A stretch of 64,000 nucleotides of DNA from an uncultured bacterium (GCA_902826835.1 CADEGH010000003.1:266083-330082), one strand, 5' to 3'. Numbered from the stretch's first letter, positions 5,755-19,547 are shown. Numbers and translations are program-made. Notes: generated by a model not told the origin, from the sequence alone.

Positions 5755-6539
5755 GACGATTTCTCCTTCCTGGGTGGAAGCGGAATGAACGCGCTCACGC
5801 GCCGTTGGTAGGCGCGGTAAGGCTCGCCGCGGGACCGCACCATCGCCTCCTCAAGGATGGGAATTCCCGTGACCTTGAAGAGGAACAAAGCCATCAACGC
5901 CGGCCCGAGCAGGAGCAGGTAACCCATGGGCGCCGACCACCCGATGAGGACATAGCTCCACCAGTGGAGCCACTCGAAAAAGTAGTTGGGGTGACGAGAC
6001 CAGCCCCAGAGTCCAACATCGCAAACCGAGCCCGGCGGCGCGCTCTTCACGAAGCTGCGGAGCTGGCGATCCGCCACACTCTCTCCGAGCAACGCAATTG
6101 CGGCGACGGCGGCACCCGCCACATCCGTCCATTGCCATCCGGGGACGGTCGAACGCGCCGCCCAAAACGCCGGCAGCGCGAAGAGCACGGCCCACAGACC
6201 CTGGATCTGATACAGAACGAAGAATCGCGAGTTGGCGGCTTCGCCCCACCCTGCGCGGAAGCCTGCGTAGCGACGGTCCTCCTTCCCCCCGCGGATGCGC
6301 AAGATGAGGTGGACCGCGAGGCGAAGGGCCCAGAGGCCAACGATCCCCGCGATCAAGTGTCGGCGATGGGTCGGAGCCGGCCCAAAGAGCGCCCACGTCG
6401 CGCCGAGAACGCCGACGCCGACCGTCCAGGCCACATCCACGTCGCTGGCGTTGCGGGTTCCTCGCTGCCTGACCCACAGGAGCAGCATCATCACCAGCAT
6501 GACCGCGAGGCCGAAGAGGATCAGCATACCCTCGGTCAT
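5751..6539 (-). CDS. DUF1295 membrane protein (steroid 5-alpha-reductase / ICMT-like fold)
   Basis: WGWSRHPNYFFEWLHWWSY motif and multiple TM segments. Trimmed to the ATG at 6539, which forms an ATGA overlap with the upstream stop at 6536. Confidence 0.75.
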   Translation of the reverse strand: MTEGMLILFGLAVMLVMMLLLWVRQRGTRNASDVDVAWTVGVGVLGATWALFGPAPTHRRHLIAGIVGLWALRLAVHLILRIRGGKEDRRYAGFRAGWGEAANSRFFVLYQIQGLWAVLFALPAFWAARSTVPGWQWTDVAGAAVAAIALLGESVADRQLRSFVKSAPPGSVCDVGLWGWSRHPNYFFEWLHWWSYVLIGWSAPMGYLLLLGPALMALFLFKVTGIPILEEAMVRSRGEPYRAYQRRVSAFIPLPPRKEKSS

Positions 6540-7819
6540 GACCCGCCGCCGTAACCCGGAGCCGGGCAGGTGGCGGCAGTGAAGCCACCCCGTGCAAACA
6601 GGGCTTGGACGAGACCGAGCTGGCCCTCCGCGAAGCCGCCTTCGCAGTACGCGAAGTAGAACTCCCACTGGCGGAGCATCCGCCGCGGGAAGCCCTGCGC
6701 CAACGCCCGATCCGTGGCGGCCCGCAAATTGGTGCGCCACTCCGCGAGGGTGCGTGCGTAGTGCGATCCAAACTCGGCCAAGTCGGCGAGCACGAAGTCG
6801 GTCGCCCGACGGGCCGCCGCCAGCATGGAACCCACCGAGGGGATACTCGAGCCCGGGAAAATCGAACTCTGAATGAAGTCCACGTTTTTCAGGGCTCGGG
6901 CGTGGCGGCGTTCGGTGAGCGTGATTCCCTGCACCATGAACACTCCCCCGGGTTTGAGGAGGCGCGACACGGTCCGGAAGTACTCGGGCAGGTTCTCATG
7001 TCCCACCGCTTCAATCATCTCGACGCTCACCGCCTTGTCGAACTGTCCCTCGAGATCGCGATAGTCGGAAAGCAGAACCGTGATTCGATCCGAGAGCCCC
7101 GCGTCCCGCACACGCTCGGTTGCCAAATAATGCTGCTCTTTCGAGATCGTCGTGGTGGTCACTCGGCAGCCGTACCGCGCCGCGGCGTGGAGTGCAAAGC
7201 TCCCCCAGCCGGTGCCGATCTCAAGGAGATGATCGTCGGCGGTGAGCGCCAGTTTTTGGCAGATGCGATCCAGCTTGGCAGTCGACGCTTCTTCGAGCGT
7301 CGTCTGCGCCGAAGGGAAGATCGCGCTTGAATAGGTGAGCGAGCGATCCAGGAACAGCCGGAACCAGTCGTTGCCAAGATCATAATGGGCCGCGATGTTC
7401 TTGCGACTACCGATCTTGGTGTTGCGAGCGAACCAACGATGGCTCAAATAGCGCACCCGATTCGCGAAGGCCGCAAAGCCCCGCTCCAGACGGTCGGTGA
7501 TCTCCTCGTTCCGCACCATGAGACGCACGAGATTCGGTAGCGGATGGCAATCCCAAGTCCCGTCCGCGTAGGTCTCGGCCGCGCCGATGGTGCCGCCCCG
7601 GAGCACCCGCTGGTAGAAATCCGGGTGATGGACGGTGAGTGTCGCGTGCAACGGGCCGCCGCTTCCGAAGTGTTCTTCGGAATGGCCATCGCGCAAAGTG
7701 ACTCGCCCGCCCTGGAGACGAGCGAATGCTCGCCGCAGGGCCTCTTTGCCGAGTCGTTGTCCCCAGAGCAGACGCGATGTCCGAGGCGCCCCGATGGAAG
7801 TGTGAGTGGGACTCGTCAT
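6536..7819 (-). CDS. cfa: Cyclopropane-fatty-acyl-phospholipid synthase
   Basis: HYDLGNDWFRLFLD, LLEIGTGWGSFALHAA, and C-terminal YFAYCEGGF. Trimmed to the ATG at 7819 (ATGA overlap with DUF1365). Confidence 0.85.
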   Translation of the reverse strand: MTSPTHTSIGAPRTSRLLWGQRLGKEALRRAFARLQGGRVTLRDGHSEEHFGSGGPLHATLTVHHPDFYQRVLRGGTIGAAETYADGTWDCHPLPNLVRLMVRNEEITDRLERGFAAFANRVRYLSHRWFARNTKIGSRKNIAAHYDLGNDWFRLFLDRSLTYSSAIFPSAQTTLEEASTAKLDRICQKLALTADDHLLEIGTGWGSFALHAAARYGCRVTTTTISKEQHYLATERVRDAGLSDRITVLLSDYRDLEGQFDKAVSVEMIEAVGHENLPEYFRTVSRLLKPGGVFMVQGITLTERRHARALKNVDFIQSSIFPGSSIPSVGSMLAAARRATDFVLADLAEFGSHYARTLAEWRTNLRAATDRALAQGFPRRMLRQWEFYFAYCEGGFAEGQLGLVQALFARGGFTAATCPAPGYGGGS

Positions 7820-8622
7820 GCCGGAGTTCTCGATGAAGGAGAATAGGTCTTCGGGTGATCGTGGAACGGTGCCCCCTTGAGCCAAAGAAGGAGGGCATGC
7901 CAGTAGATCGCGAGTACGATCCTGAACGTCTGAAGTGGATGGCCGAGACACGCTCGCGCCGCGGTGCCGGCGCTGAATCGCTGTTTGTCGAGATGAAGGC
8001 GGGCTTCGAACAGGCGTTCGCCCTCCCGCCAGTTTTCCATGTGCACGTCGGTGGTCCGCTGCCCCCGTTCGAAAGCCCAGGCATAGCTCAGGTCCATCGG
8101 CAGGAACGGGGACACGTGAAACCGCTTTGGAAAGCGATGCGCGGCGGACAGGGTGCGCGGCGAAAAGTCGGACGCAGTGCCCTCGCTGCGCAGATGGTCA
8201 TTCCGTTGATCCAGAATCTCGAGATGCCGCTCCCCCCACGGAGTGTTGTGGATCTCCGCGATGACGGCGGCGAGTCGACCCTCGCTATCGAAGCAGTGAA
8301 AGAAGCTCACGGGATTCATGACGTAGCCCAGGGTGCGGGGCTGCGTCAGAAGTTCGATGCGCCCTTGCGGAGTGAATCCGAGTTCCGCGGCTACGGTCTC
8401 CCGCACGACCTGGGCCCATGGCCGAGAGGGGTCGCCGAAGTGATCCCGGCGCCGAATCCAAAACGGAGCTGGCCTTCGAGCCGACCAAAACCACCTTCTT
8501 CGCAAGCCCGACTCCAAGTGATCGAGGTCGAGGCCCACGAGAAAGAGGCGGTAGTGAAATGCGTGTGGGACGGGCGCAAAGCGGCGGTGCCACACTCGGC
8601 CTTTCCAGATCCGGTGACTCAT
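7816..8622 (-). CDS. DUF1365 family protein
   Basis: 268 aa. G.VWHRRFAPVPHAFHYRLFLVGLDLD is the characteristic DUF1365 N-terminus. 4-bp overlaps on both sides. Confidence 0.8.
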   Translation of the reverse strand: MSHRIWKGRVWHRRFAPVPHAFHYRLFLVGLDLDHLESGLRRRWFWSARRPAPFWIRRRDHFGDPSRPWAQVVRETVAAELGFTPQGRIELLTQPRTLGYVMNPVSFFHCFDSEGRLAAVIAEIHNTPWGERHLEILDQRNDHLRSEGTASDFSPRTLSAAHRFPKRFHVSPFLPMDLSYAWAFERGQRTTDVHMENWREGERLFEARLHLDKQRFSAGTAARACLGHPLQTFRIVLAIYWHALLLWLKGAPFHDHPKTYSPSSRTPA

Positions 8623-9875
8623 CCGAGTCGATCTCCCCCGAGCGCGGCCGCCACGCGGACGGCGCTTTGCACACCGTCTTCGTGGAACCCGTAACCGAAG
8701 TAGGCTCCGGCGAAGGAGGTCCGGTTTTGGTTGATGAGCTTTCCGTGCTCACGCTGCGCCGCGAGCGCGCGGGCGCGATACGCGGGGTGTCGGTAGTGGA
8801 AGCGACGCACCACCTTCGACTCCGCCAGACGCTGGCCGGCATTCAGAGAAACGAGCCAGGGAGTGGATTGCGGAAGCCCTTGCAGGAGATTCATCGAGTA
8901 CGTGCAGATCGGGATCGCCTCCGAATCGCGAGGCAAGAAGGAATTCCACGCGGAGACCGCGCGCTTCGCACGAGGCAGGATGCCATCATCCTGATGCAAG
9001 GTCACGTCGTTCCCGGTGTAGGGGAAGGCCTGGAGGATACGACGCTCATCGTCGGAAGGATGATCGAGAAGACGCAGGGCATCGTCGGCATGGCACGCCA
9101 GAATCACATGGTCCGCCCGAACCGGAGGCTGACCGGCAAATTCCAGGACAACATGATCTGGAAGCCGCCGTACCCTCGTGACCTCGTGCTGCGTGCGGAT
9201 CTCGCTCGCGAGGGTGCGCCGGAGTGCCTGCACGTACTGGTCAGAACCACCCTGCACCGTCCGCCACTGCGGCCGGTCGTTGCCCGCCTGCAGCATGCGG
9301 TGGTTGTTCAAGAACCCGAGCAGAAAGTGCGCGGGGAACTCCATCAGAGTGTGCGCTGGACAAGACCAAAGCGCGGAACCGAGCGGCACCAGGTAGTCGC
9401 GCACGAAGCGCTCGCTGAAGCGATGCTCGCCGACCAGATCTCCGACCGACCGGTCGTCGCGCCCCGTGGCCAAGTCCTGCCCCCCGACCTCGTGAAAGCG
9501 GACGATCTCCTTCAAGAACCTCAGGTAGGACCAGTCCAAGAGGCGCCGCTTCTGCGCGAAGAGGGCGCGGACATCGGTGCCGCCATACTCGAGGCCCGTC
9601 GCCTCGCTCCTCACCCCGAAGCTCATGGTGGTGGGTCTCGAGGCCACCCCCAACTGCTTCAAGAGCGCGGTGAATCCCGGGTAGTTGTGCTCATTGAACA
9701 CGATGAAACCGGTGTCCACGCGCGCGGCGGATCCATCCCGGTTCGCGACTCCCACCGTATGCACATGGCCGCCCACCCGGCTGTCCGCCTCAAAAACCGT
9801 GACCCGATGCCCACCCGCCAGCAGGTAGGCCGCCACGAGGCCCGAGACTCCGGATCCGACAACCGCGACGTCCAT
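8619..9875 (-). CDS. NAD(P)/FAD-dependent oxidoreductase (amine-oxidase / desaturase-like); first gene of the operon
   Basis: MDVAVVGSGVSGLVAAYLLAGGHRVTVFEA dinucleotide-binding N-terminus. This is the conserved partner of DUF1365 and CFA synthase genes. Confidence 0.82.
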   Translation of the reverse strand: MDVAVVGSGVSGLVAAYLLAGGHRVTVFEADSRVGGHVHTVGVANRDGSAARVDTGFIVFNEHNYPGFTALLKQLGVASRPTTMSFGVRSEATGLEYGGTDVRALFAQKRRLLDWSYLRFLKEIVRFHEVGGQDLATGRDDRSVGDLVGEHRFSERFVRDYLVPLGSALWSCPAHTLMEFPAHFLLGFLNNHRMLQAGNDRPQWRTVQGGSDQYVQALRRTLASEIRTQHEVTRVRRLPDHVVLEFAGQPPVRADHVILACHADDALRLLDHPSDDERRILQAFPYTGNDVTLHQDDGILPRAKRAVSAWNSFLPRDSEAIPICTYSMNLLQGLPQSTPWLVSLNAGQRLAESKVVRRFHYRHPAYRARALAAQREHGKLINQNRTSFAGAYFGYGFHEDGVQSAVRVAAALGGDRLG

Positions 9876-10079: not shown

Positions 10080-11267
10080 ATGTGCGCAAGGATCCTGCTC
10101 ACCGCGTTGGGTTTTTGCCGGTTGGCGTGCGCCCAGCCTTGGCTGGATGCCTACGACCCCACCGTCGTTCGAGTCTTCAACTTTTCCCTCTCGGGCGCCG
10201 ACTGGACGCTCATCAAGTCCGACCCGACATTCGAGATCGAAGTGCCCGCGATGTTCTCGGAGGCGGGAGAGGCGCCCATTCTTGTCGGTCTTCGACGCAA
10301 GTCGGGTACCGCCCTTGGACCCACGGGCCAGAAGATCAGCCTGAAGGTCGACATCAATCAGTTTGTGGCAGGGCAGTCGTGGCGAGGAATGAAGAAGCTC
10401 AGTCTCGAAAACGGCGACGACGAGGACGTCCTGGCCGAAGGCATGGGATGGCTCTTGCACCGCCTCGCCGCTCTGCAACTCACGGGAAGCTGGATTCCCA
10501 CCTCCGGCATTTATCGCCCGGGAATGGCGGCGTGGTGTGCGGTAGTCGTGAACGGCGAATACCTGGGCTGCTACGTCAACGTCGAACAGCCCGACAAGTC
10601 TTTCCTCCAGAATCGCGGGATGTGGACTCCCGGGGCGAGCTGGCTCTACAAAGTCGACGATCCGGCCTTGGTGACCCGCGAAGAGGGGACCGGCGACAGC
10701 CCCGCCTTTCAATGCCTGTGCTTCAGTCCTTTCGAGAGTCCGGCCCCATGCCCCGCCCCATCGGCAACGACCCTGGAGAGCCTCGTCGCCGGACAAGTCG
10801 ATATGACGGCCTGGATGCACTACGCCGCGGTCAGCGCCTTCCACGGGGGCTCCGACCAGCTCTTTACCCACGGGAAGAACTGCTTTTTCTGCGATCGCCT
10901 CGGATTGCCCCGCATGTATTTGCCGTGGGACTTGGACAGTGTGTTCAAGGCGAGCCGCGTGAACTCCGGCATCTACGGACAAATCACTCCCACCGGACTC
11001 ATCCAGACCCTGTACCAGCAGGTCATCATCAACCACCCGACCTTCCGCGCGGAGTTCAACTCCACGGTCGATGCCCTGTTGGCGGGATACCTGAGCGCGG
11101 CCACGCTCAACGCCGTCGTCACCCATATCCAGGTCTACACGGCGGTTCCCCTCGCGATCCAGCTCGACCCGAACGGGAACCTCTCCGGATCCTCCACTGC
11201 GCGCTTCCAATCCCTTCGCACCTGGATCTCTCAACGTGCCGCCAACATTGCGGCTCAAACGCCTTAG
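10080..11267 (+). CDS. Secreted CotH-kinase-family protein
   Basis: Signal peptide MCARILLTALGFCRLACAQP. CotH-like layout (..ISLKVDINQF..MKKLSLENGDDEDVLAEGMGWLLHR..YVNVEQPDKSFL..). Assigned from memory of the family pattern only. Confidence 0.55.
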   Translation: MCARILLTALGFCRLACAQPWLDAYDPTVVRVFNFSLSGADWTLIKSDPTFEIEVPAMFSEAGEAPILVGLRRKSGTALGPTGQKISLKVDINQFVAGQSWRGMKKLSLENGDDEDVLAEGMGWLLHRLAALQLTGSWIPTSGIYRPGMAAWCAVVVNGEYLGCYVNVEQPDKSFLQNRGMWTPGASWLYKVDDPALVTREEGTGDSPAFQCLCFSPFESPAPCPAPSATTLESLVAGQVDMTAWMHYAAVSAFHGGSDQLFTHGKNCFFCDRLGLPRMYLPWDLDSVFKASRVNSGIYGQITPTGLIQTLYQQVIINHPTFRAEFNSTVDALLAGYLSAATLNAVVTHIQVYTAVPLAIQLDPNGNLSGSSTARFQSLRTWISQRAANIAAQTP

Positions 11268-11286
11268 GTCTTCGGCACCCGGCTCT

Positions 11287-11317
11287 GCGGAGACGCCGTC
11301 CTATCGGAGGTCTCCGC
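11287..11317. terminator. 8-bp GC hairpin between convergent genes; possible bidirectional terminator
   Basis: gcggagac-N15-gtctccgc lies between the CotH stop (11267) and the TIR-PFK stop (11365). There is no flanking U-tract. Confidence 0.3.
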
Positions 11318-11364
11318 TGATTCGGTCCCAGATCGTTCCTGCACCGGACGAGTCTACACCCGTC

Positions 11365-13407
11365 TCAGGTCTGCTCGGCTTCGCTCTCTCCGGGGTAGGA
11401 GGAACCTACCGTCCGTGCACCGGAAGTCCCGGTAGCGGTCGAGCCCGACTCCTGGCCGGTGTTCGCAATCACCGACTTCCAGAAAATTCCGCTCGGCGGG
11501 ACGCGCTTGCGTCCGAGGACCACCAATTCGAGCGGAACCAACACGTACTCGGTGAGCCACTGGCTGACCATGAAATCGGTATACCCGGCCATCGCATTGT
11601 CGACCGCCAGGTTCCCCAGCCGACGGGCAAAAGTCACGTCGATGGAGCTCGGCTCCATACTGCGGATGAGATGGCGAGGTTCGTTGGAGAACACTCTGAA
11701 GCTGTTCCAATACGCATCGTGGGTGCCCTCTTTCCTGATCAAGAATTGGAGTCCAAAAGAAACCAATTTCAGCGCCGCAGAACGCAAGTCGTCAGGTGTC
11801 TGGCCAATCACCCGACGGCCGTTAGCGTCGAAATGCTGCACGGCCATAGTCTCAGCGGCGCTGAGGCGGGCAACCGTTACGTAGTTATTCCAATCCCGCG
11901 GGATGGCGGTCTCCGCCATCATCACCAGGCCGAAGGGCCGTCGCTGGGACTTTTTTCTTTCTTTGAGCTTTCCGATCAGTCCCTTCGCGATCTGAACCAA
12001 ATTGAAATCAACTTCCGGGATCAGGGCTGCATCGCAATCCCCGGAAGCGAGGGCCGCATGGGACACGACAAATCCCGAGTCCGACCCGAAGAGCTGCATC
12101 ACACACAACCTGGGGTTCGAAAAGCTCTCCTGGTGCAATTGCCTCGAGAATCGGGTTGCCATCTCCACGGCTGAGGCAAATCCAAAGGATTGCCAGACCC
12201 AGAGAATATCGTTGTCCATCGTCTTCGGAATGCCGACCACGGAGAGGCAGGAGCTCGTGTTCTCGGACGCACGGGTTGCCAAGGCGTGAGCCGCTCTCAT
12301 GCTCCCGTCGCCACCGATGACATAGAGAATGTCGATGTCTTGAAGAAAGCCGATGATCCGATCGAGGATCCTGATGCGATCGACGCCGCGGCTGTTCAAC
12401 AGTTCATCGAAACGCGCCGTGGCCACGCAAGATCCGGCAGTCCGAGCCAGCTCTTTGACCTTGGCATCCGTCCAGTCGACGATTTCGAAATTGTCCGCTC
12501 CATCGTGAAGTCCCTGAAAGCCCCCGTGGTACACCCGGATGAGCGCATCCTGGCCCGAATAGAGCCGATGGCGTTCGATCAAACTGGCGAGCACGGCATT
12601 GATGCCCGGCGCAATACCTCCGGAGACCACGATCGCGACGCGAACCCCCGGCCTTCCGCGGTGCGGAAGCGACAGTCGTCGGCGAGGCCGGGCTTCGAGA
12701 AAAGACAACTTGGAGGGAATGGACTGGCGGGCATCCACGGAAATCCGGGCTTCGGAATCGCCGTAGCTCCCAATGACAGACTCGTGGATTTGATTCTCGT
12801 ACCATGGGGGCACGCCCACCCGAGCGGAAGGCCAACTCGCCGGACATCCGAGGGTGACGAGATCGAGGCGGTGGCTCGCGATATCACCGCTCGTGGGATC
12901 GAACGCCTTGATCAAATCCTTCTCGTAGCCAAAAGGGTATCCTATCGGGAGCCCGTCGATCTCGACCCAAGGCGGAGGGGCTTTGTGAGAACCCCACAGC
13001 AAGGTCCAGACTTGGCGACCTACACCGCACCAAAATCCGGCGCCTCCCCCCTTGGCCAAGACGCGAGCCGCCGACAATTCCAGTGGCGCCAACGGCAACG
13101 TGAATGAAGGCAGATCCTCCGTCAGTTGAACAATGATGAAGCGTTTTTTTGTCTTGAGAACATGGCGGACCTCCGACTCTTGCGTGGCGCCCACCGTCTC
13201 TCCGAGCACGATCAGGACGGTTTCACAATCATCCAAGGCGCGTTGGACTTGCTCCGGCCATGTTCCAATCTTGCGATTCTCGATGAAAAAGTAGACCTCG
13301 ATGTGATCCTGCCGCCGAAGTTCTCGGACAAGCTGGGCGACGAGAGCTTCGTCGCCGAACCGATAAGAAACGAAAACTCGATGCAGCGGCTCAGTGGATT
13401 TCGACAT
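11365..13407 (-). CDS. Fusion protein: N-terminal TIR-like domain, about 150 aa of unknown sequence, and a C-terminal phosphofructokinase-family (PFK-like) domain
   Basis: 680 aa. N-terminus: VFVSYRFGDEALVAQL..IGTWPEQVQRALDDCETVLIVLGE (TIR_2-like pattern). PFK signatures: VVSGGIAPGINA, YVIGGDGS, GIPKTMDNDI, MMAET, and RHLIRSMEPSSID. The MGR motif is replaced by LFG. GC is lower than in neighbouring genes. Confidence 0.7.
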   Translation of the reverse strand: MSKSTEPLHRVFVSYRFGDEALVAQLVRELRRQDHIEVYFFIENRKIGTWPEQVQRALDDCETVLIVLGETVGATQESEVRHVLKTKKRFIIVQLTEDLPSFTLPLAPLELSAARVLAKGGGAGFWCGVGRQVWTLLWGSHKAPPPWVEIDGLPIGYPFGYEKDLIKAFDPTSGDIASHRLDLVTLGCPASWPSARVGVPPWYENQIHESVIGSYGDSEARISVDARQSIPSKLSFLEARPRRRLSLPHRGRPGVRVAIVVSGGIAPGINAVLASLIERHRLYSGQDALIRVYHGGFQGLHDGADNFEIVDWTDAKVKELARTAGSCVATARFDELLNSRGVDRIRILDRIIGFLQDIDILYVIGGDGSMRAAHALATRASENTSSCLSVVGIPKTMDNDILWVWQSFGFASAVEMATRFSRQLHQESFSNPRLCVMQLFGSDSGFVVSHAALASGDCDAALIPEVDFNLVQIAKGLIGKLKERKKSQRRPFGLVMMAETAIPRDWNNYVTVARLSAAETMAVQHFDANGRRVIGQTPDDLRSAALKLVSFGLQFLIRKEGTHDAYWNSFRVFSNEPRHLIRSMEPSSIDVTFARRLGNLAVDNAMAGYTDFMVSQWLTEYVLVPLELVVLGRKRVPPSGIFWKSVIANTGQESGSTATGTSGARTVGSSYPGESEAEQT

Positions 13408-13529
13408 AAGGATGTGAGGTTCGGACCGACCGCAAGAGAACCATCGCCCACACTCGGGCCGCGCAACGAGGGCCTGGCAACCCTGGGTGACCGTGATTCC
13501 CTGTCGGATGGCGAACTGATCCCGGGGTG

Positions 13530-13558
13530 ATTAGACCCGTACGTGGAACTGCTGTCAA
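13530..13558 (-). promoter_or_regulatory. Sigma70-type promoter for the TIR-PFK gene
   Basis: Minus-strand reading: TTGACA (13558-13553), 17-nt spacer, TCTAAT (13535-13530). This is about 120 nt upstream of the ATG at 13407. Confidence 0.5.
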
Positions 13559-14177
13559 GCGACCGCTGCATCCCGCAAGAACCCGGATCCGAGTCTCGAT
13601 TACCGGGACCATCCTCCTGCCAAAATGGTGGGTCATTCCAATGGGCCCGAAAAGAGTGGCCCTGTATTGGCAGTCAGTCGCCCCCGCTACCCTCCACAGG
13701 AAAGACCGGTGCGCTGGGCGCGGATTGTCACCTCTCCTGCTCGGGAAGCGAGAGAAAAACCACGGCTGGGACCCGAGGACTGAGTTCTACACCACGCTGC
13801 TCCGCTCTCCGCGCTGCCCCAGTTCAATCGTGATTCCGGGTCATGATGCCGGACGGAATTCGACCTTACCGCATTGCCATCGATCTCATGAGAAAAGGGA
13901 TGGAATTCACGCCCGCCATAGGCCAGGCCTCGACGAGGGCCGACATGCCATCGGGTTGGATTCGACTGCGGCCACCGCCCGGCATGTCCTACCGGGGGCG
14001 GGTGCTTGCGCCACCCCTCATCTGGGTGCTGCCGAGGGTGCTCCGAATCCTCGGAACTCGGCCATCAGGGAGAGCACCCACTGGTGCTCACGCGGGTTGA
14101 GGAGGCGAACAAGTCCGACGCGGCGATGGCCATCACTGCACGGCTACTCGGAGAGAGGCGAACTTGAACTCGCACGA

Positions 14178-14198
14178 TGTCCAGATAATTTAAAGAAC
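14178..14198 (+). promoter_or_regulatory. Third, degenerate copy of the TGTCCA-N10-xGxAC motif, immediately upstream of the SRPBCC gene
   Basis: tgtccagataatttaaagaac is 15/21 identical to the site at 9904-9924. It contains a GATAAT -10-like hexamer 11 nt before the ATG at 14201. No Shine-Dalgarno sequence. Confidence 0.35.
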
Positions 14199-14200
14199 AA

Positions 14201-14746
14201 ATGACCATCCAGGCTTCATCAGTGCCCACACGGGTTCCACCGCTCTCCAGGCAGCTGATACCCCCTATCACCTTCGCGGCGGACCCCGACTTCAGGGGGG
14301 CCTGGCGGCTCGACACCGCGATTTTTCTTCCGCTCACTCCGGAGGCGCTCTTTCCGTTTTTTGCCGACGCCCGGAACTTGGAGGAGATCACCCCGCCGTG
14401 GCTGCGGTTCGCGCTTGTCGATGCGCCGGCCGGACCCCTCGCGAGCGGAGCGCTCATCAACTACCGGTTGCGGATACGAGGGGTACCGATTCGTTGGCAA
14501 ACCCGGATCGATGATTGGGACCCCCCGCGTCGATTCACCGACGAACAGAAGAAGGGCCCCTACCGCCGCTGGCACCACGAGCACCGGTTCTTTTCGATGG
14601 AAGGTGGAACCCTCATGACCGATCGAGTTTCCTTCGCGGCGATCGGCGGCCCCTTGGTCCGCCGTTTTCTCATCGAGCCCGATCTGCGGCGGATCTTCAC
14701 CTACCGACACGAGCGCATCCGGGCTCGCTTCGGAGGCGCGGAATGA
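14201..14746 (+). CDS. SRPBCC-superfamily (cyclase/dehydrase-like) ligand-binding protein
   Basis: 181 aa. ..FPFFADARNLEEITPPWLRF..YRLRIRGVPIRWQTRIDDWDPPRRFTDEQKKGPYRRWHHEHRF.. is the typical SRPBCC pattern. Confidence 0.75.
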   Translation: MTIQASSVPTRVPPLSRQLIPPITFAADPDFRGAWRLDTAIFLPLTPEALFPFFADARNLEEITPPWLRFALVDAPAGPLASGALINYRLRIRGVPIRWQTRIDDWDPPRRFTDEQKKGPYRRWHHEHRFFSMEGGTLMTDRVSFAAIGGPLVRRFLIEPDLRRIFTYRHERIRARFGGAE

Positions 14747-15288
14747 GCGCGCTCGGAAGTCTCCCCGCGGCGGCGGCAACCCTCCCGGTTTTGGGTCGCA
14801 ATCTCCGCGACGGTTCGCTCCGAGACCAGCTCGACGAGCGCCCAACGCTCCTTCTCTTCGTGCGGCACTTCGGGTGAATCTTCTGCCGCGAGCAGGTGCG
14901 CGAGGTTCGCGCCCGCAGTGAGCGAGATCCCCAGTTCCCCCCCACCTTGATCGTGCATCCTTCGGACCAAGCTTCGGGCGAGGCTTTCTTCGCGGCCGAA
15001 TGGCCGGCCGCACGTTCGATCAGCGATCCCGATCTCGAAATCTTCGAGGCCTTCGCGTTCCGACGCGGTTCGATCGGCGCGCTGCTCGGCCCGAAGGTGC
15101 TCGCCGCTTCCATCCGAGCGATGCTGCGCGGCCACGGCATCGGAAGACCGCGCGGAGACATCCTGAGGGAAGCCGGGGCACTGATCCTCGATCGCTCCCG
15201 TGTCCTTTGGGAGCACCGACCGGCGCACATCGGGGTGCATCTCGATCTCGACGAAGTGGCCGGGATCGCGGCTCGCAGCGCAGGCTGA
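14743..15288 (+). CDS. AhpC/TSA_2 (PRXL2/SelU-like) thioredoxin-fold redoxin with an in-frame TGA at 14875-14877; candidate selenoprotein with a UxxC motif
   Basis: ORF-track ORFs 14515..14877 and 14896..15288 are in the same frame. The joined reading is ..RPTLLLFVRHFG-[TGA]-IFCREQVREVRA... The ATG at 14743 overlaps the SRPBCC stop (ATGA). A hairpin lies 21 nt downstream of the TGA. Confidence 0.6.
14895..14915 (+). promoter_or_regulatory. Candidate bacterial SECIS-like stem-loop
   Basis: gcgcga-GGU-tcgcgc (14898-14912). It can be extended by G95/G96 pairing with C913/C914, leaving U97 bulged. The apical loop contains GU and lies 27-29 nt from the UGA. Confidence 0.4.
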
Positions 15289-15326
15289 GTTGCCAGAACT
15301 CACGGGCTCGTAGACACTGCCCGCGC

Positions 15327-18300
15327 ATGTTCCGGATCCGATCTCGATTCTTCGGTCTTTGGTTGCTCCTCGCCTCCACGCTGCTCGCCCAGGCGGAGCC
15401 GCCGCCGGTCAGGGCGCTGTTCTTGGGCGACCGCGGCCACCATCGACCTGAGCAGAGGTGGCGGGAGAGTCGCGAGTCGTTCTTGGCAGAGGGAGTCGAA
15501 CTCAACTACACCGAGGACCTCGCCGCCCTGACAACGGAGCGGCTCGAGCCCTTCGATGCACTCCTCGTGTACGCCAACCTCGAGTCGCTCCCGGCGGCCG
15601 CGATGGTGGCCGTCCTCGACTTCGTGCGCAGCGGAAAGGGCTTTGTCCCGCTCCACTGCGCATCCGCTTGCTGCCCTTCGGAACCGGCGTGGACGGCCTT
15701 GGTCGGAGGTCAATTCGATCGCCACGGCTTCGGCCTCGTGCGCGCCACCGTGGCCGATCCGAGCCACGCCTGCCTTCGTGGATTCATGCCCTTCGCGTCT
15801 CCGGACGAGACCTACGTCCATCGTGCGCTGACCGAGGACCGACACGTTCTCCAGTGGCGCACCGAAGGAGAGGAGCGCGAGCCGTGGACATGGGTACGCG
15901 CCGATGGGAAGGGACGGGTCTTTTACACCGCCTCGGGCCACGACGAACGCACCTGGTCACATCCGGGCTTCATCGAATTGGTCACTCGCGGGATACGGTG
16001 GGCCGCCGGAGATCGGTTCTCGAAAGTGCCGGCGCCTTACCCGCAGCTCCAATACTTCGAGGCGGAGATCCCGACTTACGGACACCAAGGGGAGGAGCGC
16101 GCGGCCCGCGGCAAGCCGAAAGGGCTTGTCCAGGGCGCACTCTCCGTGGAGGACTCGATGTCCCTCGCGGCCGTTCCCCCCGGGTTCGAACTTCGGTGCT
16201 TCGCGGCGGAGCCGAACATCACCAACCCCACCGCGATGGCCTTCGACGCCCGCGGACGGCTTTGGATCACGGAGACTCTGGACTACCCGAACGAACTCAA
16301 GCCGCAGGGGGAAGGCAGTGACCCCATCAAGATCTGCACCGACCAGGACGGTGACGGAACCGCGGATGGGTTCTCGATCTTCGCCACCGGATTGAGCATC
16401 CCCTCGAGCCTCGTGCTCGTGAAGGGGGGAGTGATCGTGACTGCCCAGCCGGACACCCTCCTTCTCTTAGACCGGGACGGCGATGATCAGGCCGATGAAC
16501 GCCGCGTCCTCTTCACCGGGTGGGGCAAGGGTGACACCCATGCCGGACCCAGCAACTTGCGCTGGGGTCAAGACGGGTGGATTTACGGCACCGTGGGTTA
16601 CTCCGGCTTTCGCGGCCGGGTCGGAACGAAGGAGCATCGATTCGGGTCCGGCGTGTTCCGTTTCCTGCCGGACGGATCGGAACTCGAATTCCTCGGATCG
16701 AGCTCCAACAACACCTGGGGGCTCGGGCTCTCGGAGTCCGGAGAGATCTTCTATTCCACCGCCAACAACGACGTCTTCAATCACGTCGCGATCAAGAACC
16801 GTCTCTTCGAGCGTGTGGATGGTTGGCACGCCCAGGGCACGGCCTTCATTGCCGATTACCGGGAGATGCACCCCGCGACCGAAGATGTGCGGCAGGTGGA
16901 CTGGCACGGGCGTTACACCGCCGCAGCCGGGGCCTCGATTTACACCGCGAGGGCATTCCCACCGAACTACTGGAATCGCATCGCCTTCGTGTGCGAACCG
17001 ACGGGACACCTCATCGGCCAAACGGTCATTGCTCCCGAAGGCAGCGGATTCGTGGCGCGCGACGGTTTCAATCTGTTCGAAAGCCGCGACGCATGGACGT
17101 CGCCGGTGGCCGCCGAAATCGGCCCCGACGGAGCGGTGTGGTTCATCGACTGGTACAGCCCGGTCATCCAACACAACCCCACGCCCCACGGTTTCGAAAC
17201 CGGTCCCGGAGCCGCTTATGTCACGGCGCTGCGCGACCAGGAGCGAGCAAGGATCTATCGCATCGTCCGACGCGGGACGTCCGACCGCGGCGCTCCTGCT
17301 CTCCGCACTCCGGATGATTGGTTGACCACGCTCGAAGACCAGAACCTCCTGTGGAGACAGCACGCCCAACGCTTGATCCTGGAGAATCCAGTTCCGGAAA
17401 TGCTCGGGCGCGTGGCGACGAGACTGACCCTGACCGCGCGGAGTCCGAGCACGGAGGCGTCGGTTCTCGTGAGCTTGATCGCGACGCTCGGCTGTCTCGC
17501 CGAAGGCCGCACCGACGAGATTGCCCCCGTGCTTCTTCCTCTTCTCATGGATGCACGCCCTGAGGTAAGGGTCGCGGCCCTGACCAGGCTGCTCCCAACG
17601 ACCAGCACCCTGCACGCGATTCTCGCGGCCAAGCTCACGCAGGACTCCGATCTTTGGGTGCGCCGCCACGCCTGGCAAGCGCTGAGCGAAGTCCCCGCCG
17701 AGGAGAGACTCGGTGAGCTCGCATGGAAGGCGCTCGGCGACGAGTCCAACGCTCGCGACCGATGGCTCCCGCTCGCCATCACGGCCGCGGCGGTGCAGCA
17801 CGCGGAGGGATTTCTGGTCGGAGCCCTGAGCGAGCCTCGCCCCACCTCGCCGGCGGTGCCGGACTCGCCCAATCTCCTCCCAAATCCGTCCTTTTCCGCG
17901 AGCGTCGATTCACCGGTGCCGGCAGCTCCACCGTGGAGAGTCCGAACCTACGGCGGGCAAGCCACCCACCGTGTGTCCGAGAGCGGGCGCAGCGGCGATA
18001 CATGCTTGGAGATCAGCTCCGAAACCGGTTCCGACACCAGCTACTTCGTGGATGTGAAGGTCGAACCCAAGACCACCTACCGCTTGAGCGGCTGGATCCG
18101 CACGCAAGGCCTGAAGACGAGGGGAGGCGCGCTCGGCGCCCTGCTCAATGTCCATGGGCGAAGCCCGGCCGAGGGCGCGACGACGGTCGCAAACCCGAGC
18201 GAGGAGTGGAATGAAGTCGAACTGACCTTCGCGACCCACCCCGGCGAAACTGAAGTCAGCATCAACTGCCTGTTCGGCGGGTGGGGATTTGCGACCGGCA

Positions 18301-19547
18301 CCGCCTGGTTCGACGACGTGAAGCTCACGAAGATCGGATCCGGCTCGGACGAAGCGGCCCGCGCGGTCGCGCGGGAGCAGGCACTGCGTCTCGCAACCAG
18401 GGCGCTGGCGTCCGCCGGGGTGAGCGCCGCCTGGGCCAATCTCCTGCCACGGCTGTCCGCGGCCGACGAGAGGTTGCGTCACTCGATTCTTGGCGGGCTC
18501 GCGAGCGGCTGGCCGAAAGGCAAGTCGTCGCAATTTTCGGAGGCCGAACGAAATCGGCTGCGGAATTTCGAGTCCACCCTCGACACCTCCGCGCTCTCGG
18601 AGTGGGTAGAAGTCACCCGGGCATGGAGCGACGAGGCATTGATTTCTTCGGCCGTCGCACGCGTTCGCACTGAACTTCAAAGAACACTCTCCGATACCAC
18701 CACTCCGCAGGCAGCGAGACTAAAATCCCTCGGCCGTCTGCTCCGACTGGAAGATTCGGCAGAGAATCGAGCCAAAGTCCGCGCTGAACTTTCGCCCCTT
18801 CTCGAGCCGACGGCGGCGAAGCAGGTCCTCGATCTGCTGGCCAAGTGCCGCGCTGACGAAAATGGACCGGAGCTGGTCGCCCTGTGGCCCGAGCTGACAC
18901 CATCGCTACGACAGCACTTGGCCCCGATATTCCTGAAACGCCCGGCCTGGCAGCAAGCCCTCGCCGAAGCGCTGCTTTCGGGCACTACGACCCGCGCCGA
19001 ACTCGGGACTGAGGTAACCGAGAAGCTGATTTTGTCCCTCCCCGCGGATCTGGCCGATCGCCTCCGGAACGCCGCCACCAACCATGCAGTCGCGAAGGAC
19101 CGGCAGGCCGCGCTCGATCGACTGCTCCCTCTGATCGGAGGACCGGGTGATCCCGCGCGAGGCCGCCAGCTATTCCGCACTCTCTGCTCGTCTTGTCACC
19201 AAAAAGACGGGCTGGGCGCCGCCGTGGCCCCCGCTTTGGATGGGCTTGGATCCAAGGCCCACTCCGACTTGTTGCTTGAAATCGTCGACCCGAACCGCTC
19301 CGTGGAAGCCACCTACCAGCTCTGGTTGGCCTTCACCAAAGAGGGCGAGTCGTTCTCCGGGCGCATGCTCTCGGAGTCGAGGACGACGATCGAACTTCAA
19401 GACTCGGGCGACGTTCGGCACGTGATTCCGCGCGAGGCGATCGACACCCTTCGCGCCACTAACCGTTCCCTCATGCCGGAGGGCTTGATCGATCACTTCA
19501 GCGCCGACGACCTCCGCTCGTTGCTCACCTATCTGACGGGAAAGTGA
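15327..19547 (+). CDS. Secreted multidomain protein: ThuA-like domain, beta-propeller membrane-bound-dehydrogenase-type domain, HEAT repeats, CBM-like module, and C-terminal c-type cytochrome
   Basis: Trimmed to MFRIRSRFFGLWLLLASTLLAQA (signal peptide). ThuA-like segment: ALFLGDRGHH..LLVYAN..FVPLHCAS. Propeller segment: ITNPTAMAFDARGRLWITE. C-terminal heme motif: CSSCHQKDG. Confidence 0.7.
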   Translation: MFRIRSRFFGLWLLLASTLLAQAEPPPVRALFLGDRGHHRPEQRWRESRESFLAEGVELNYTEDLAALTTERLEPFDALLVYANLESLPAAAMVAVLDFVRSGKGFVPLHCASACCPSEPAWTALVGGQFDRHGFGLVRATVADPSHACLRGFMPFASPDETYVHRALTEDRHVLQWRTEGEEREPWTWVRADGKGRVFYTASGHDERTWSHPGFIELVTRGIRWAAGDRFSKVPAPYPQLQYFEAEIPTYGHQGEERAARGKPKGLVQGALSVEDSMSLAAVPPGFELRCFAAEPNITNPTAMAFDARGRLWITETLDYPNELKPQGEGSDPIKICTDQDGDGTADGFSIFATGLSIPSSLVLVKGGVIVTAQPDTLLLLDRDGDDQADERRVLFTGWGKGDTHAGPSNLRWGQDGWIYGTVGYSGFRGRVGTKEHRFGSGVFRFLPDGSELEFLGSSSNNTWGLGLSESGEIFYSTANNDVFNHVAIKNRLFERVDGWHAQGTAFIADYREMHPATEDVRQVDWHGRYTAAAGASIYTARAFPPNYWNRIAFVCEPTGHLIGQTVIAPEGSGFVARDGFNLFESRDAWTSPVAAEIGPDGAVWFIDWYSPVIQHNPTPHGFETGPGAAYVTALRDQERARIYRIVRRGTSDRGAPALRTPDDWLTTLEDQNLLWRQHAQRLILENPVPEMLGRVATRLTLTARSPSTEASVLVSLIATLGCLAEGRTDEIAPVLLPLLMDARPEVRVAALTRLLPTTSTLHAILAAKLTQDSDLWVRRHAWQALSEVPAEERLGELAWKALGDESNARDRWLPLAITAAAVQHAEGFLVGALSEPRPTSPAVPDSPNLLPNPSFSASVDSPVPAAPPWRVRTYGGQATHRVSESGRSGDTCLEISSETGSDTSYFVDVKVEPKTTYRLSGWIRTQGLKTRGGALGALLNVHGRSPAEGATTVANPSEEWNEVELTFATHPGETEVSINCLFGGWGFATGTAWFDDVKLTKIGSGSDEAARAVAREQALRLATRALASAGVSAAWANLLPRLSAADERLRHSILGGLASGWPKGKSSQFSEAERNRLRNFESTLDTSALSEWVEVTRAWSDEALISSAVARVRTELQRTLSDTTTPQAARLKSLGRLLRLEDSAENRAKVRAELSPLLEPTAAKQVLDLLAKCRADENGPELVALWPELTPSLRQHLAPIFLKRPAWQQALAEALLSGTTTRAELGTEVTEKLILSLPADLADRLRNAATNHAVAKDRQAALDRLLPLIGGPGDPARGRQLFRTLCSSCHQKDGLGAAVAPALDGLGSKAHSDLLLEIVDPNRSVEATYQLWLAFTKEGESFSGRMLSESRTTIELQDSGDVRHVIPREAIDTLRATNRSLMPEGLIDHFSADDLRSLLTYLTGK

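Follow-up and report, generated by a model that had tools for sequence, protein, structure and literature searches.

A TIR domain fused to a phosphofructokinase-like kinase: an apparently undescribed protein family represented in an uncultured bacterium

The TIR-PFK gene and its N-terminal domain

Within a 64,000-nucleotide stretch of DNA from an uncultured bacterium (GCA_902826835.1, CADEGH010000003.1:266083-330082; hereafter the window, with positions counted from its first letter) lies a gene, here called TIR-PFK, that joins a TIR domain to a phosphofructokinase (PFK)-like kinase domain in a single polypeptide. An earlier note, made from the sequence alone, had pointed to this gene as a possible one-gene immune or metabolic-arrest effector or, alternatively, a kinase regulated by a TIR-like sensor domain. 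The gene is a 680-codon open reading frame (ORF) on the minus strand (11365-13407), and its translation contains all the peptides quoted in that note: VFVSYRFGDE, IGTWPEQVQRALDDCETVLIVLGE, ATQESEVRH and SGGIAPGINA, as well as GGDGS, PKTMDNDI, MMAET and RHLIRS of the kinase. A public protein collection holds an identical copy of the window protein (P0001). The full-length AlphaFold2 model, built from 38 homologues, reached a predicted local distance difference test score (pLDDT) of 86.7 and a predicted template modelling score of 0.88. The features of the gene are as follows (aa, amino acids).

11365-13407, minus strand: complete TIR-PFK gene, 680 aa plus stop codon (ORF list, translation, AlphaFold2 model)
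12985-13383, minus strand: TIR domain (aa 9-141) of five strands with helices between them (Pfam TIR_2, domain model, Foldseek)
13363-13374, minus strand: first-strand motif F12-V-S14-Y15, family consensus F-L-S-Y (alignment)
13171-13191, minus strand: motif G73-A-T-Q76-E-S-E79, with E79 (13171-13173) as predicted catalytic Glu (alignment)
12643-12972, minus strand: family-conserved middle region, aa 146-255, motifs DGLPxGYPFxYEKDII, GCPxxWP and FPEAGPR
11443-12642, minus strand: PFK-like kinase domain, aa 256-655 (Pfam PFK, PDB sequence and fold matches)
12208-12228, minus strand: PKTMDND motif with the predicted catalytic Asp D398 (family alignment)
12082-12090, minus strand: F440-G441-S442 in place of the canonical M-G-R (alignment with T. 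brucei 'LMGRDSGF')
11662-11676, minus strand: R578-H579-L-I-R582, with H579 and R582 corresponding to E. coli H249 and R252 (site table)
11368-11442, minus strand: C-terminal tail, aa 656-680, unconserved and predicted to be disordered (pLDDT below 50, alignment)
13530-13558, minus strand: string resembling a promoter, TTGACA-17 nt-TCTAAT, some 120 nt before the ATG (weak evidence)

A homologue search of 5.8 billion proteins returned 1,187 matches, and the homologue counts given here refer to the best 120. These are 40-52% identical to the window protein and most align over about 95% of it. The N-terminal domain matches Pfam TIR_2 (clan STIR) over aa 11-101, with 38.2 bits for the whole protein and 42.2 bits for the isolated domain (cut-off 28), and TIR_2 is matched by 24 of 25 family N-termini. 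When a model of residues 1-145 (pLDDT 85), which shows a flavodoxin-like alpha/beta fold of five strands, was searched with Foldseek, the TIR domains of SARM1, MyD88, AbTir, SPARTA TIR-APAZ and BtpA were retrieved with E-values of about 1e-4 and template modelling (TM) scores of 0.6-0.74, and the N-glycosidases 2'-deoxyribosyltransferase (NDT), MilB, BcmB and DNPH1 were approximately level with them. The modelled fold by itself cannot part a TIR domain from its sister N-glycosidases NDT, DNPH1 and MilB. Sequence evidence would nonetheless put the domain on the TIR side, because TIR_2 matches it, because a profile of the domain reaches classical multi-TIR_2 proteins once the TIR-PFK proteins are exhausted, and because of how E79 aligns. 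In hhalign, E79 fell onto the catalytic Glu of 'DWVHKE' in what we take to be the SARM1 TIR sequence, used as an alignment landmark only, and onto the Glu of 'WVHQE' in a classical TIR_2 protein encoded nearby. With a Pfam score above cut-off, matching folds and an aligned catalytic Glu, the TIR assignment made in the earlier note holds. DUF4062 matched the window protein with an E-value of 0.14 and gave weak matches in 5 of 25 family N-termini.

Conservation is concentrated at the predicted site. E79 is Glu in 118 of the 120 homologues, Asp in one and a gap in one; Q76 is kept in 119 and G73 in 116. The first-strand residues F12, S14 and Y15 are retained in 112, 114 and 105 homologues respectively, with gaps from truncated sequences making up most of the remainder. 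Mean pairwise identity of the TIR domain within the family is 30%. Because E79, Q76 and G73 are near-invariant in such a fast-evolving domain, selection seems to act on the TIR site, as expected if it is an active site or binds a ligand. The domain is thus probably a TIR of the type that cleaves nicotinamide adenine dinucleotide (NAD+), with the catalytic residue kept, and NAD+ cleavage is the activity that we infer for it. It resembles the catalytic TIRs of Thoeris ThsB, SPARTA TIR-APAZ, AbTir and Cat1, and also SARM1, in its fold (TM 0.6-0.74), its TIR_2 match, its first-strand F-x-S-Y and a helix C Glu in the catalytic position. Unlike these, the window protein reads G-x-T-Q-x-x-E in place of S-x-W-x-x-x-E, and the partner domain is a PFK-like kinase, not STING, SAVED, APAZ or STAND. 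In contrast to Thoeris, a ThsA-type effector gene is absent. The TIR profile also found two proteins of other layouts, namely P0265 (1,773 aa), where WD40 repeats come after seven tandem TIR_2 domains, and P0319 (1,178 aa), in which four TIR_2 domains precede an FGE-sulfatase domain.

A PFK-like kinase without the canonical arginine

The roughly 150 residues that follow the TIR domain had been described as bearing no recognisable motif. This did not hold up, since the middle region is present in all 120 homologues, has a mean pairwise identity of 39% and can be aligned, in its C-terminal portion, with the extension that PRK06830 and long PFKs of the T. brucei type carry at the N-terminus. The kinase domain proper matches Pfam PFK (PF00365) over aa 256-603 with 151.9 bits (cut-off 30.9), and its best PDB match is the T. 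brucei ATP-PFK, both by sequence (E 6e-30) and by Foldseek (E 9e-27, 476 aligned columns). Its mean identity across the family is 59%, with a minimum of 52%. Site residues were compared in a table of about 190 PFK-family proteins aligned to the family profile. Both Asp residues of PKTMDND are kept in all family rows of that table, with T or V at the Met position in some, and GGDGS is kept across the family rows except for H in place of D in one sequence and G or T at the final Ser. R332, R433, E499, H579 and R582 are kept through the family with single exceptions at most. The kinase keeps the equivalents of E. coli R72, R162, E222, H249 and R252, and D398 corresponds to E. coli D127; this numbering follows what we take to be the E. 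coli PfkA sequence, which served as an alignment landmark only. Pfam, fold and conserved site residues agree, in line with the earlier description, that this is a PFK domain with nucleotide and catalytic signatures.

The motif in which ordinary PFKs carry M-G-R, whose Arg (R171 in E. coli) contacts the phosphate being transferred, is altered. The Arg is indeed absent, as had been noticed, although the replacement is F440-G441-S442 and not 'LFG': the Gly is kept and Ser stands in place of Arg. FGS occurs in all TIR-fused family members, which have GGIAPG throughout. All the ordinary PFKs compared carry (M/F)GR except L025, which has MGN; ordinary ATP- and pyrophosphate-dependent PFKs have GGD-x-PG and T. 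brucei-like enzymes GGLCPG. Three TIR-less sisters, from metagenome-assembled genomes (MAGs) of Anaerolineaceae, Verrucomicrobia and Akkermansia muciniphila (L009:9860-11380, L010:2757-4184 and L011:9521-11239), show FGA and GG(I/V)APG. The loss of the MGR Arg predates the TIR fusion, because these TIR-less sisters already lack it. Every family member, like sisters L009-L011, reads 'RH' at R578-H579, a place taken by SY, AY, AH or GY in other PFKs. R578 is peculiar to the Arg-less clade and its gain coincides with the loss of the MGR Arg; possibly it is a relocated active-site arginine.

Curated models draw the same boundary. The window protein scores below every NCBIfam PFK cut-off (PRK06830, PFKA_ATP and others), the best being 228.5 bits against the 400 required by PRK06830. 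Against the NCBI ATP-PFK equivalog (cut-off 400), TIR-fused proteins reach 228-251 bits (241-251 for those other than the window protein) and the TIR-less sisters 276-288, as compared to 636 for the MGR-bearing L012. These scores agree with a placement of the Arg-less clade outside the PFKs defined by NCBI. Proteins of this clade carry public labels of the '6-phosphofructokinase' type despite failing the ATP-PFK equivalog. A paper on Akkermansia lists two or more PFK-annotated genes, and the glycolytic enzyme there need therefore not be the Arg-less one. As a whole, the window protein resembles the long ATP-PFKs (PRK06830; T. brucei PFK, 2hig and 6sy7) in the 476 aligned columns, N-terminal extension included, in GGDGS with its ATP-type Gly and in PKT-x-DND with the catalytic Asp. 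It differs from them in the Ser for the MGR Arg, in GGI for GGD/L, in an extra Arg before the conserved His, in about 250 additional N-terminal residues that include the TIR domain, and in an insertion between residues 477 and 574.

At the level of DNA, the gene has a GC content of 58.7% against 64.8 +/- 1.8% for the 29 other genes of the window (z = -3.4) and is the 2-kb stretch with the lowest GC in the window. The lower GC remarked upon earlier is therefore genuine, but the figures then given (47-50% against 63-70%) were too strong, and only 4 of the 34 sixty-base lines of the gene are at or below 50%. The gene looks monocistronic, as had also been proposed, because it is convergent with a CotH-like gene that ends at 11267, 97 nt away, and divergent from an SRPBCC gene that begins at 14201, 793 nt upstream. 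The string TTGACA-17-TCTAAT, taken in the earlier note for the gene's own promoter, does exist, but a promoter scan of 11100-14300 called none (0.8 sites expected by chance); the scanner passed it over because its -10 hexamer has C and not the critical A at position 2. No terminator was found by a scan after the TIR-PFK stop codon, and an Rfam search of the window, including the 790-nt upstream gap, returned no RNA family. No convincing ORF was found in that gap (13408-14200, about 790 nt between the TIR-PFK start codon and the SRPBCC gene).

The wider surroundings comprise a cluster of CFA synthase, DUF1365 and amine oxidase genes, the CotH-like and SRPBCC genes, a ThuA-DUF7133-cytochrome c gene and one for a xylose-isomerase-like protein. 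At 6536-9875 on the minus strand the CFA synthase (CMAS), DUF1365 and flavin amine-oxidase-like genes are tightly packed and overlapping on the same strand. The plus strand at 15000-19547 encodes a large protein of the 'PVC-type haem-binding' kind with the make-up ThuA-DUF7133-CBM-cytochrome c; its identical public copy measures 1,406 aa, so that the true start is probably about 109 codons past the first ATG. Sequence identity was also tried as a means of telling core from accessory genes and proved uninformative because the source organism has no close sequenced relatives: the closest non-self homologue of TIR-PFK is about 50% identical, and that of the neighbouring PVC-type haem protein 48%.

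A cross-phylum family and its gene neighbourhoods

Own domain profiles recovered the order TIR, middle region and PFK in 119 of the 120 best homologues. The sole exception is P0099, in which a metallophosphoesterase replaces the TIR domain, and a few members carry an extra HTH_17 or HEPN domain, are extended at the C-terminus or have sequence inserted into the kinase. Frequent swapping of the effector domain, considered as a family trait, was ruled out on this count. Source labels include Thermoanaerobaculia, Acidobacteriaceae, Hydrogenedentes, Phycisphaerales, Sedimentisphaerales, Deltaproteobacteria, Chloroflexota and Bacteroidales, and metagenome contigs scanned for a motif block specific to the family gave 223 loci. 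TIR-PFK proteins thus form a large cross-phylum family with a stable architecture, and the fusion is real. The idea of a one-off gene in a defence island finds no support as it stood: the gene belongs to this large family, and among ordinary genes it stands alone, both here and at 20 of the 29 well-flanked loci of relatives. Public labels of the family proteins are '6-phosphofructokinase' or 'hypothetical protein'. One full-length TIR-PFK, with an 8xMP membrane protein gene directly downstream, lies on a 5.16-Mb chromosome labelled 'Thermoplasmata archaeon' (L005, CP070751.1); the archaeal label looks questionable on a chromosome of 5.2 Mb, and the family is otherwise bacterial.

We found no description of TIR-PFK in full-text searches of the literature or on targeted consultation of the DUF4062/Swarozyc preprint, a TIR domain survey and a comparative-genomics survey of NAD+-ADPr, in keeping with the earlier remark that no system coupling a TIR to a PFK fold had been described. 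The family is apparently undescribed, and its novelty would lie in a catalytic-type TIR with an enzymatic partner domain. Swarozyc/DUF4062 proteins (bioRxiv 10.64898/2026.05.01.722283) are comparable in being single polypeptides with an N-terminal TIR-like domain of NADase type, a catalytic Glu and a large auxiliary domain. According to the same text, however, the auxiliary domain of Swarozyc is portal-binding, whereas that of TIR-PFK is an enzyme (PFK-like), and Swarozyc genes lie in defence islands, whereas TIR-PFK genes are mostly outside them.

In 13 pre-annotated contexts the gene was mostly solitary with varied neighbours, and insertion sequence (IS), integrase or toxin-antitoxin genes were near in 4 of them. 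For a broader comparison, 98 family loci were reduced to 76 by removing copies at least 90% identical, and 66 of these had a flank of 800 nt or more to at least one side. Every ORF up to 7 kb away, as a raw call, went into the clustering. A first genome scan with the whole-family alignment had retrieved mostly ordinary PFKs, with about 10 of 80 loci relevant; the other PFK loci were reused as controls and number 74 after the removal of L013. One cluster (C1) was split by BLAST into true RelA_SpoT proteins (4 loci) and other RyR proteins, and in another (C6), joined through TPR repeats, only L152 holds a TIR-NB-ARC-TPR protein. The gene types recurring at family loci are these.

13 of 66 loci: sugar-1-phosphate nucleotidyltransferase, in 8 loci directly downstream on the same strand, with closest gaps of -34 to +52 nt
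10 of 66 loci: additional TIR-domain ORF
8 of 66 loci: RyR-domain ORFs, often several per locus
6 of 66 loci: RtcR/PspF-like sigma-54 AAA+ ATPase
5 of 66 loci: '8xMP' membrane protein (PF24838), 40-157 nt from TIR-PFK in 4 of the 5
4 of 66 loci: RelA_SpoT-TPR-RyR protein, with a NUDIX gene in each
4 of 66 loci: DUF4231 protein, presumably SLATT-like
4 of 66 loci: STAND-like ATPase with RyR

In roughly one quarter to one third of the loci the neighbourhood departs from random. RyR genes were found in 8 of 66 family loci and none of the 74 controls (Fisher p = 0.002), extra TIR genes in 10 against none (p = 4e-4), the union of RyR, DUF4231, RyR-ATPase and extra TIR in 16 against none (p = 2e-6), 4 of the 16 also having RelA_SpoT and NUDIX genes, and nucleotidyltransferases in 13 against 2 (p = 0.002), all these values being indicative only because the control set differs in collection and taxa and the ORFs are raw. 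A literature search on 8xMP gave nothing relevant, and the statistics are therefore given with and without it: when it is added to the union, the figure, to be read with the same caution, is 21 of 66 against 0 of 74 (p = 2e-8). The one nucleotidyltransferase representative tested passes the GalU equivalog model, and strict GalU adjacency was found at none of 75 other PFK loci searched. Partner links are scattered over a neighbour-joining tree of the kinase domain, the nucleotidyltransferase link appearing at no fewer than eight separate places. One locus has TIR-PFK after an FGGY kinase, a zinc-dependent alcohol dehydrogenase (Zn-ADH) and a DeoC aldolase.

Several loci are more elaborate. L092 reads NUDIX, RelA_SpoT-TPR-RyR, RyR, TIR-PFK, TIR. 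L085 carries NUDIX, TrkA_N-RyR and RelA_SpoT-TPR-RyR genes, the last adjoining TIR-PFK in opposite orientation, and the RelA_SpoT proteins of these two loci share 39% identity across 869 residues. In L013 (JADJEQ010000039.1, 2369-11835), which belongs to a Bacteroidales MAG, there is a same-strand cluster in the order RelA_SpoT, SLOG-like (a call based on a weak LSDAT_prok match), RyR (a protein of 93 aa), TrkA_N, NUDIX, ThsB-like TIR, TIR-FGE-sulfatase and finally a frameshifted TIR-PFK. L013 was the only 'control' locus with RyR, TIR and NUDIX matches, and it carries a TIR-PFK itself. The TIR-FGE-sulfatase pairing of P0319 recurs there as a neighbour gene. The cluster looks like a multi-gene module centred on NAD and ADP-ribose (ADPR), and we found no description of it. 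Two distant loci (L008:12590-16087 and L119:5408-8643) share a conserved gene pair beside TIR-PFK: one product measures about 264 aa and has two TIR-like segments, the other has 815-899 aa and weak TIR-profile matches. At L112:6745-10573, a locus with a copy in L115, TIR-PFK is immediately followed by two or three RyR-domain ORFs: two of about 245 aa overlap in different frames, and the third encodes a 908-aa STAND-like ATPase with two RyR repeats.

Possible roles of the fusion

Food for speculation is what a TIR domain and a PFK-like kinase could do in the same polypeptide. To our knowledge, the catalytic TIRs of prokaryotes are conflict enzymes. For that reason, and because the enriched partners are of the same type, the reading that we rank first, albeit tentatively, is that TIR-PFK is a two-enzyme protein in NAD+/ADPR-centred stress or conflict signalling. 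Also in its favour are the TIR assignment with near-invariant E79 and Q76, the retained kinase site, the stable layout, the similar part lists of L092, L085 and L013 in separate lineages, the effector-type domains (HEPN, metallophosphoesterase, HTH_17) that are now and then added or swapped in, and the low GC of the window gene. The TIR half would cleave NAD+ or a close analogue and release an ADPR-type product. The PFK-like module would be an active ATP-dependent kinase, probably tetrameric like its relatives. Coupling of the two activities could take either of two forms: the oligomeric or allosteric state of the kinase might gate the TIR, thereby tying NAD+ cleavage to sugar-phosphate and adenylate status, or the kinase might phosphorylate a sugar phosphate of the same pathway. 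Where partner genes are present, their products (RyR, RelA_SpoT, NUDIX, more TIRs, membrane proteins) may read, modify or remove the nucleotide product, and the copy in the window would then be the stand-alone, probably monocistronic core gene.

RyR domains bind or cleave the 2' and 3' isomers of cyclic ADP-ribose (2'cADPR and 3'cADPR) made by TIRs, and related phage RyR proteins sequester these signals (PMC13232231). The occurrence of RyR genes beside TIR-PFK would therefore indicate an ADPR-type product of the TIR half. In having RyR genes alongside, in 8 loci and L013, the family recalls phage RyDEP, which handles cADPR signals (PMC13232231), and the signal-and-receiver logic of Thoeris, a TIR that generates a signal being placed beside proteins able to bind it, although, unlike the RyDEP proteins of phages, the RyR proteins of the family are bacterial and fused to RelA_SpoT-TPR, a STAND-like ATPase or TrkA_N. 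Two further neighbour types would fit the same ADPR chemistry, RelA_SpoT being a pyrophosphokinase that acts on ribose hydroxyls and NUDIX a pyrophosphohydrolase.

A number of observations weigh against this interpretation. The kinase domain (59% mean and 52% minimum identity across phyla) is unusually conserved for an immune sensor, a pattern more in keeping with a core enzyme. Among the partners, the most frequent is a sugar-1-phosphate nucleotidyltransferase, whose tested representative is GalU, an enzyme of carbohydrate metabolism. None of the partner gene types of the family occurs in the whole 64-kb window, where the neighbours are ordinary genes, and 20 of 29 well-flanked loci have no nucleotidyltransferase, RyR/RelA_SpoT, NUDIX or ThsB-like TIR partner. 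PADLOC-DB 2.0 gave no significant match (only SAVED_TIR, E 0.0017, 15.5 bits), no family members were found on viral contigs, a plasmid search with the N-terminal half returned no match, and the Pfam-annotated neighbours included no restriction-modification, CRISPR or CBASS genes. The neighbourhood statistics, as said, are indicative. The check for defence islands suggested in the earlier note cuts both ways, with a mostly solitary gene on the one hand and the 16 loci with RyR, TIR, DUF4231 or RyR-ATPase neighbours on the other. The same is true of the argument, also raised there, that a TIR extension conserved throughout the clade would speak against a defence role: the extension is such a clade-wide feature, yet about a quarter to a third of the loci have NAD/ADPR-type neighbours (RyR, extra TIR, DUF4231, RelA_SpoT with NUDIX), which the 74 control loci lack.

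Several of these points would be expected if the protein were a regulated housekeeping ATP-dependent 6-phosphofructokinase, glycolytic or paralogous, in which a TIR-like domain tunes the kinase without any part in immunity. The domain would then be a regulatory or ligand-binding module, for example for NAD+, AMP or ADPR, and the T. brucei PFK, the closest solved relative, was crystallised with AMP bound. A strongly conserved, slow-evolving kinase with its catalytic residues kept, an architecture fixed across phyla, a nucleotidyltransferase as commonest operon partner (13 loci, often 0-50 nt downstream), the locus with FGGY kinase, Zn-ADH and DeoC aldolase, and ordinary neighbours in the window and at most loci all suit this account, as does the lack of a second pfk gene in the 64-kb window. 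In E. coli PFK, moreover, loss of the equivalent Arg171 is reportedly not lethal to catalysis. However, the window protein and the whole Arg-less clade fail the curated NCBI PFK models that an MGR-bearing relative passes easily (636 against 400), and a near-invariant Glu in a TIR domain of 30% identity suggests chemistry and not just binding. Moreover, RyR, extra TIR, RelA_SpoT, NUDIX and DUF4231 genes are enriched relative to other PFK loci, strict GalU adjacency is absent from the 75 others, and Akkermansia, which has a TIR-less Arg-less sister, has at least two PFK-annotated genes. The neighbourhood evidence favours an immune or arrest effector over a TIR-regulated kinase, and we regard the housekeeping role as rather unlikely, though as the strongest of the competing accounts.

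The level Foldseek scores of 2'-deoxyribosyltransferase, MilB, BcmB and DNPH1 on the one side and true TIRs on the other leave room for an enzyme of nucleotide salvage or sugar-nucleotide metabolism, in which an N-glycosidase like NDT, DNPH1 or MilB frees a sugar of the (deoxy)ribose 5-phosphate type, the kinase phosphorylates it, and the product is taken up by the GalU-type nucleotidyltransferase or DeoC aldolase of an adjacent gene. A changed substrate would fit both the loss of an Arg that contacts the fructose 1-phosphate position and the failed equivalog models, and the nucleotidyltransferase lies immediately downstream in at least 8 loci, with DeoC upstream in one. The sequence models, however, give TIR_2 and not the Nribosyltransf families, and the RyR partner set indicates ADPR or cyclic ADP-ribose, not nucleoside monophosphates, all of which makes salvage improbable in our view. 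Least probable of all seems a one-gene abortive-infection NADase whose PFK-like part is a scaffold or decoy sensor, its kinase chemistry being irrelevant. Defence by a single gene that encodes a TIR or TIR-like domain together with an auxiliary one is well established, DUF4062/Swarozyc being an example; TIR-PFK is solitary at most loci, and IS, integrase or toxin-antitoxin genes were near in 4 of the 13 annotated contexts. But the ATP site, the catalytic Asp and the substrate residues are preserved from phylum to phylum, which a pure scaffold would not require; the PFK domain changes slowly, which is not typical of phage sensors; and neither a defence-island setting in the window nor a significant PADLOC match was found.

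Within NAD+/ADPR-centred signalling, the two halves might also act in sequence on a single molecule. The terminal ribose 5-phosphate of an ADPR-type product resembles fructose 6-phosphate, and the Arg-less kinase could phosphorylate this end of the TIR product to give a phosphorylated ADPR-derived nucleotide. In some lineages this might then be extended by RelA_SpoT or a GalU-type nucleotidyltransferase, sensed by RyR and removed by NUDIX. We consider such a sequence unlikely; if true, it would represent a new Thoeris-like signalling branch, or a host counterpart of the NAD+-rebuilding route of phage NARP1.

Catalytic TIRs are central to immunity in bacteria, plants and animals, and the partner to which a TIR is coupled defines how the NAD+-derived signal is made or controlled. 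Here a TIR is permanently fused to a kinase of the central-metabolism type, at more than 200 environmental loci and in many phyla, and we found no prior description of such a fusion. The family also draws attention to a PFK clade, TIR-less Akkermansia relatives included, that pipelines label '6-phosphofructokinase' despite the missing canonical active-site Arg. The repeated linkage with RyR, RelA_SpoT and NUDIX offers a route to the role of cellular RyR domains, so far known only from phage proteins. If its TIR is active, the family would tie NAD+ cleavage to sugar-phosphate and adenylate status, or make a new phosphorylated derivative of ADPR.

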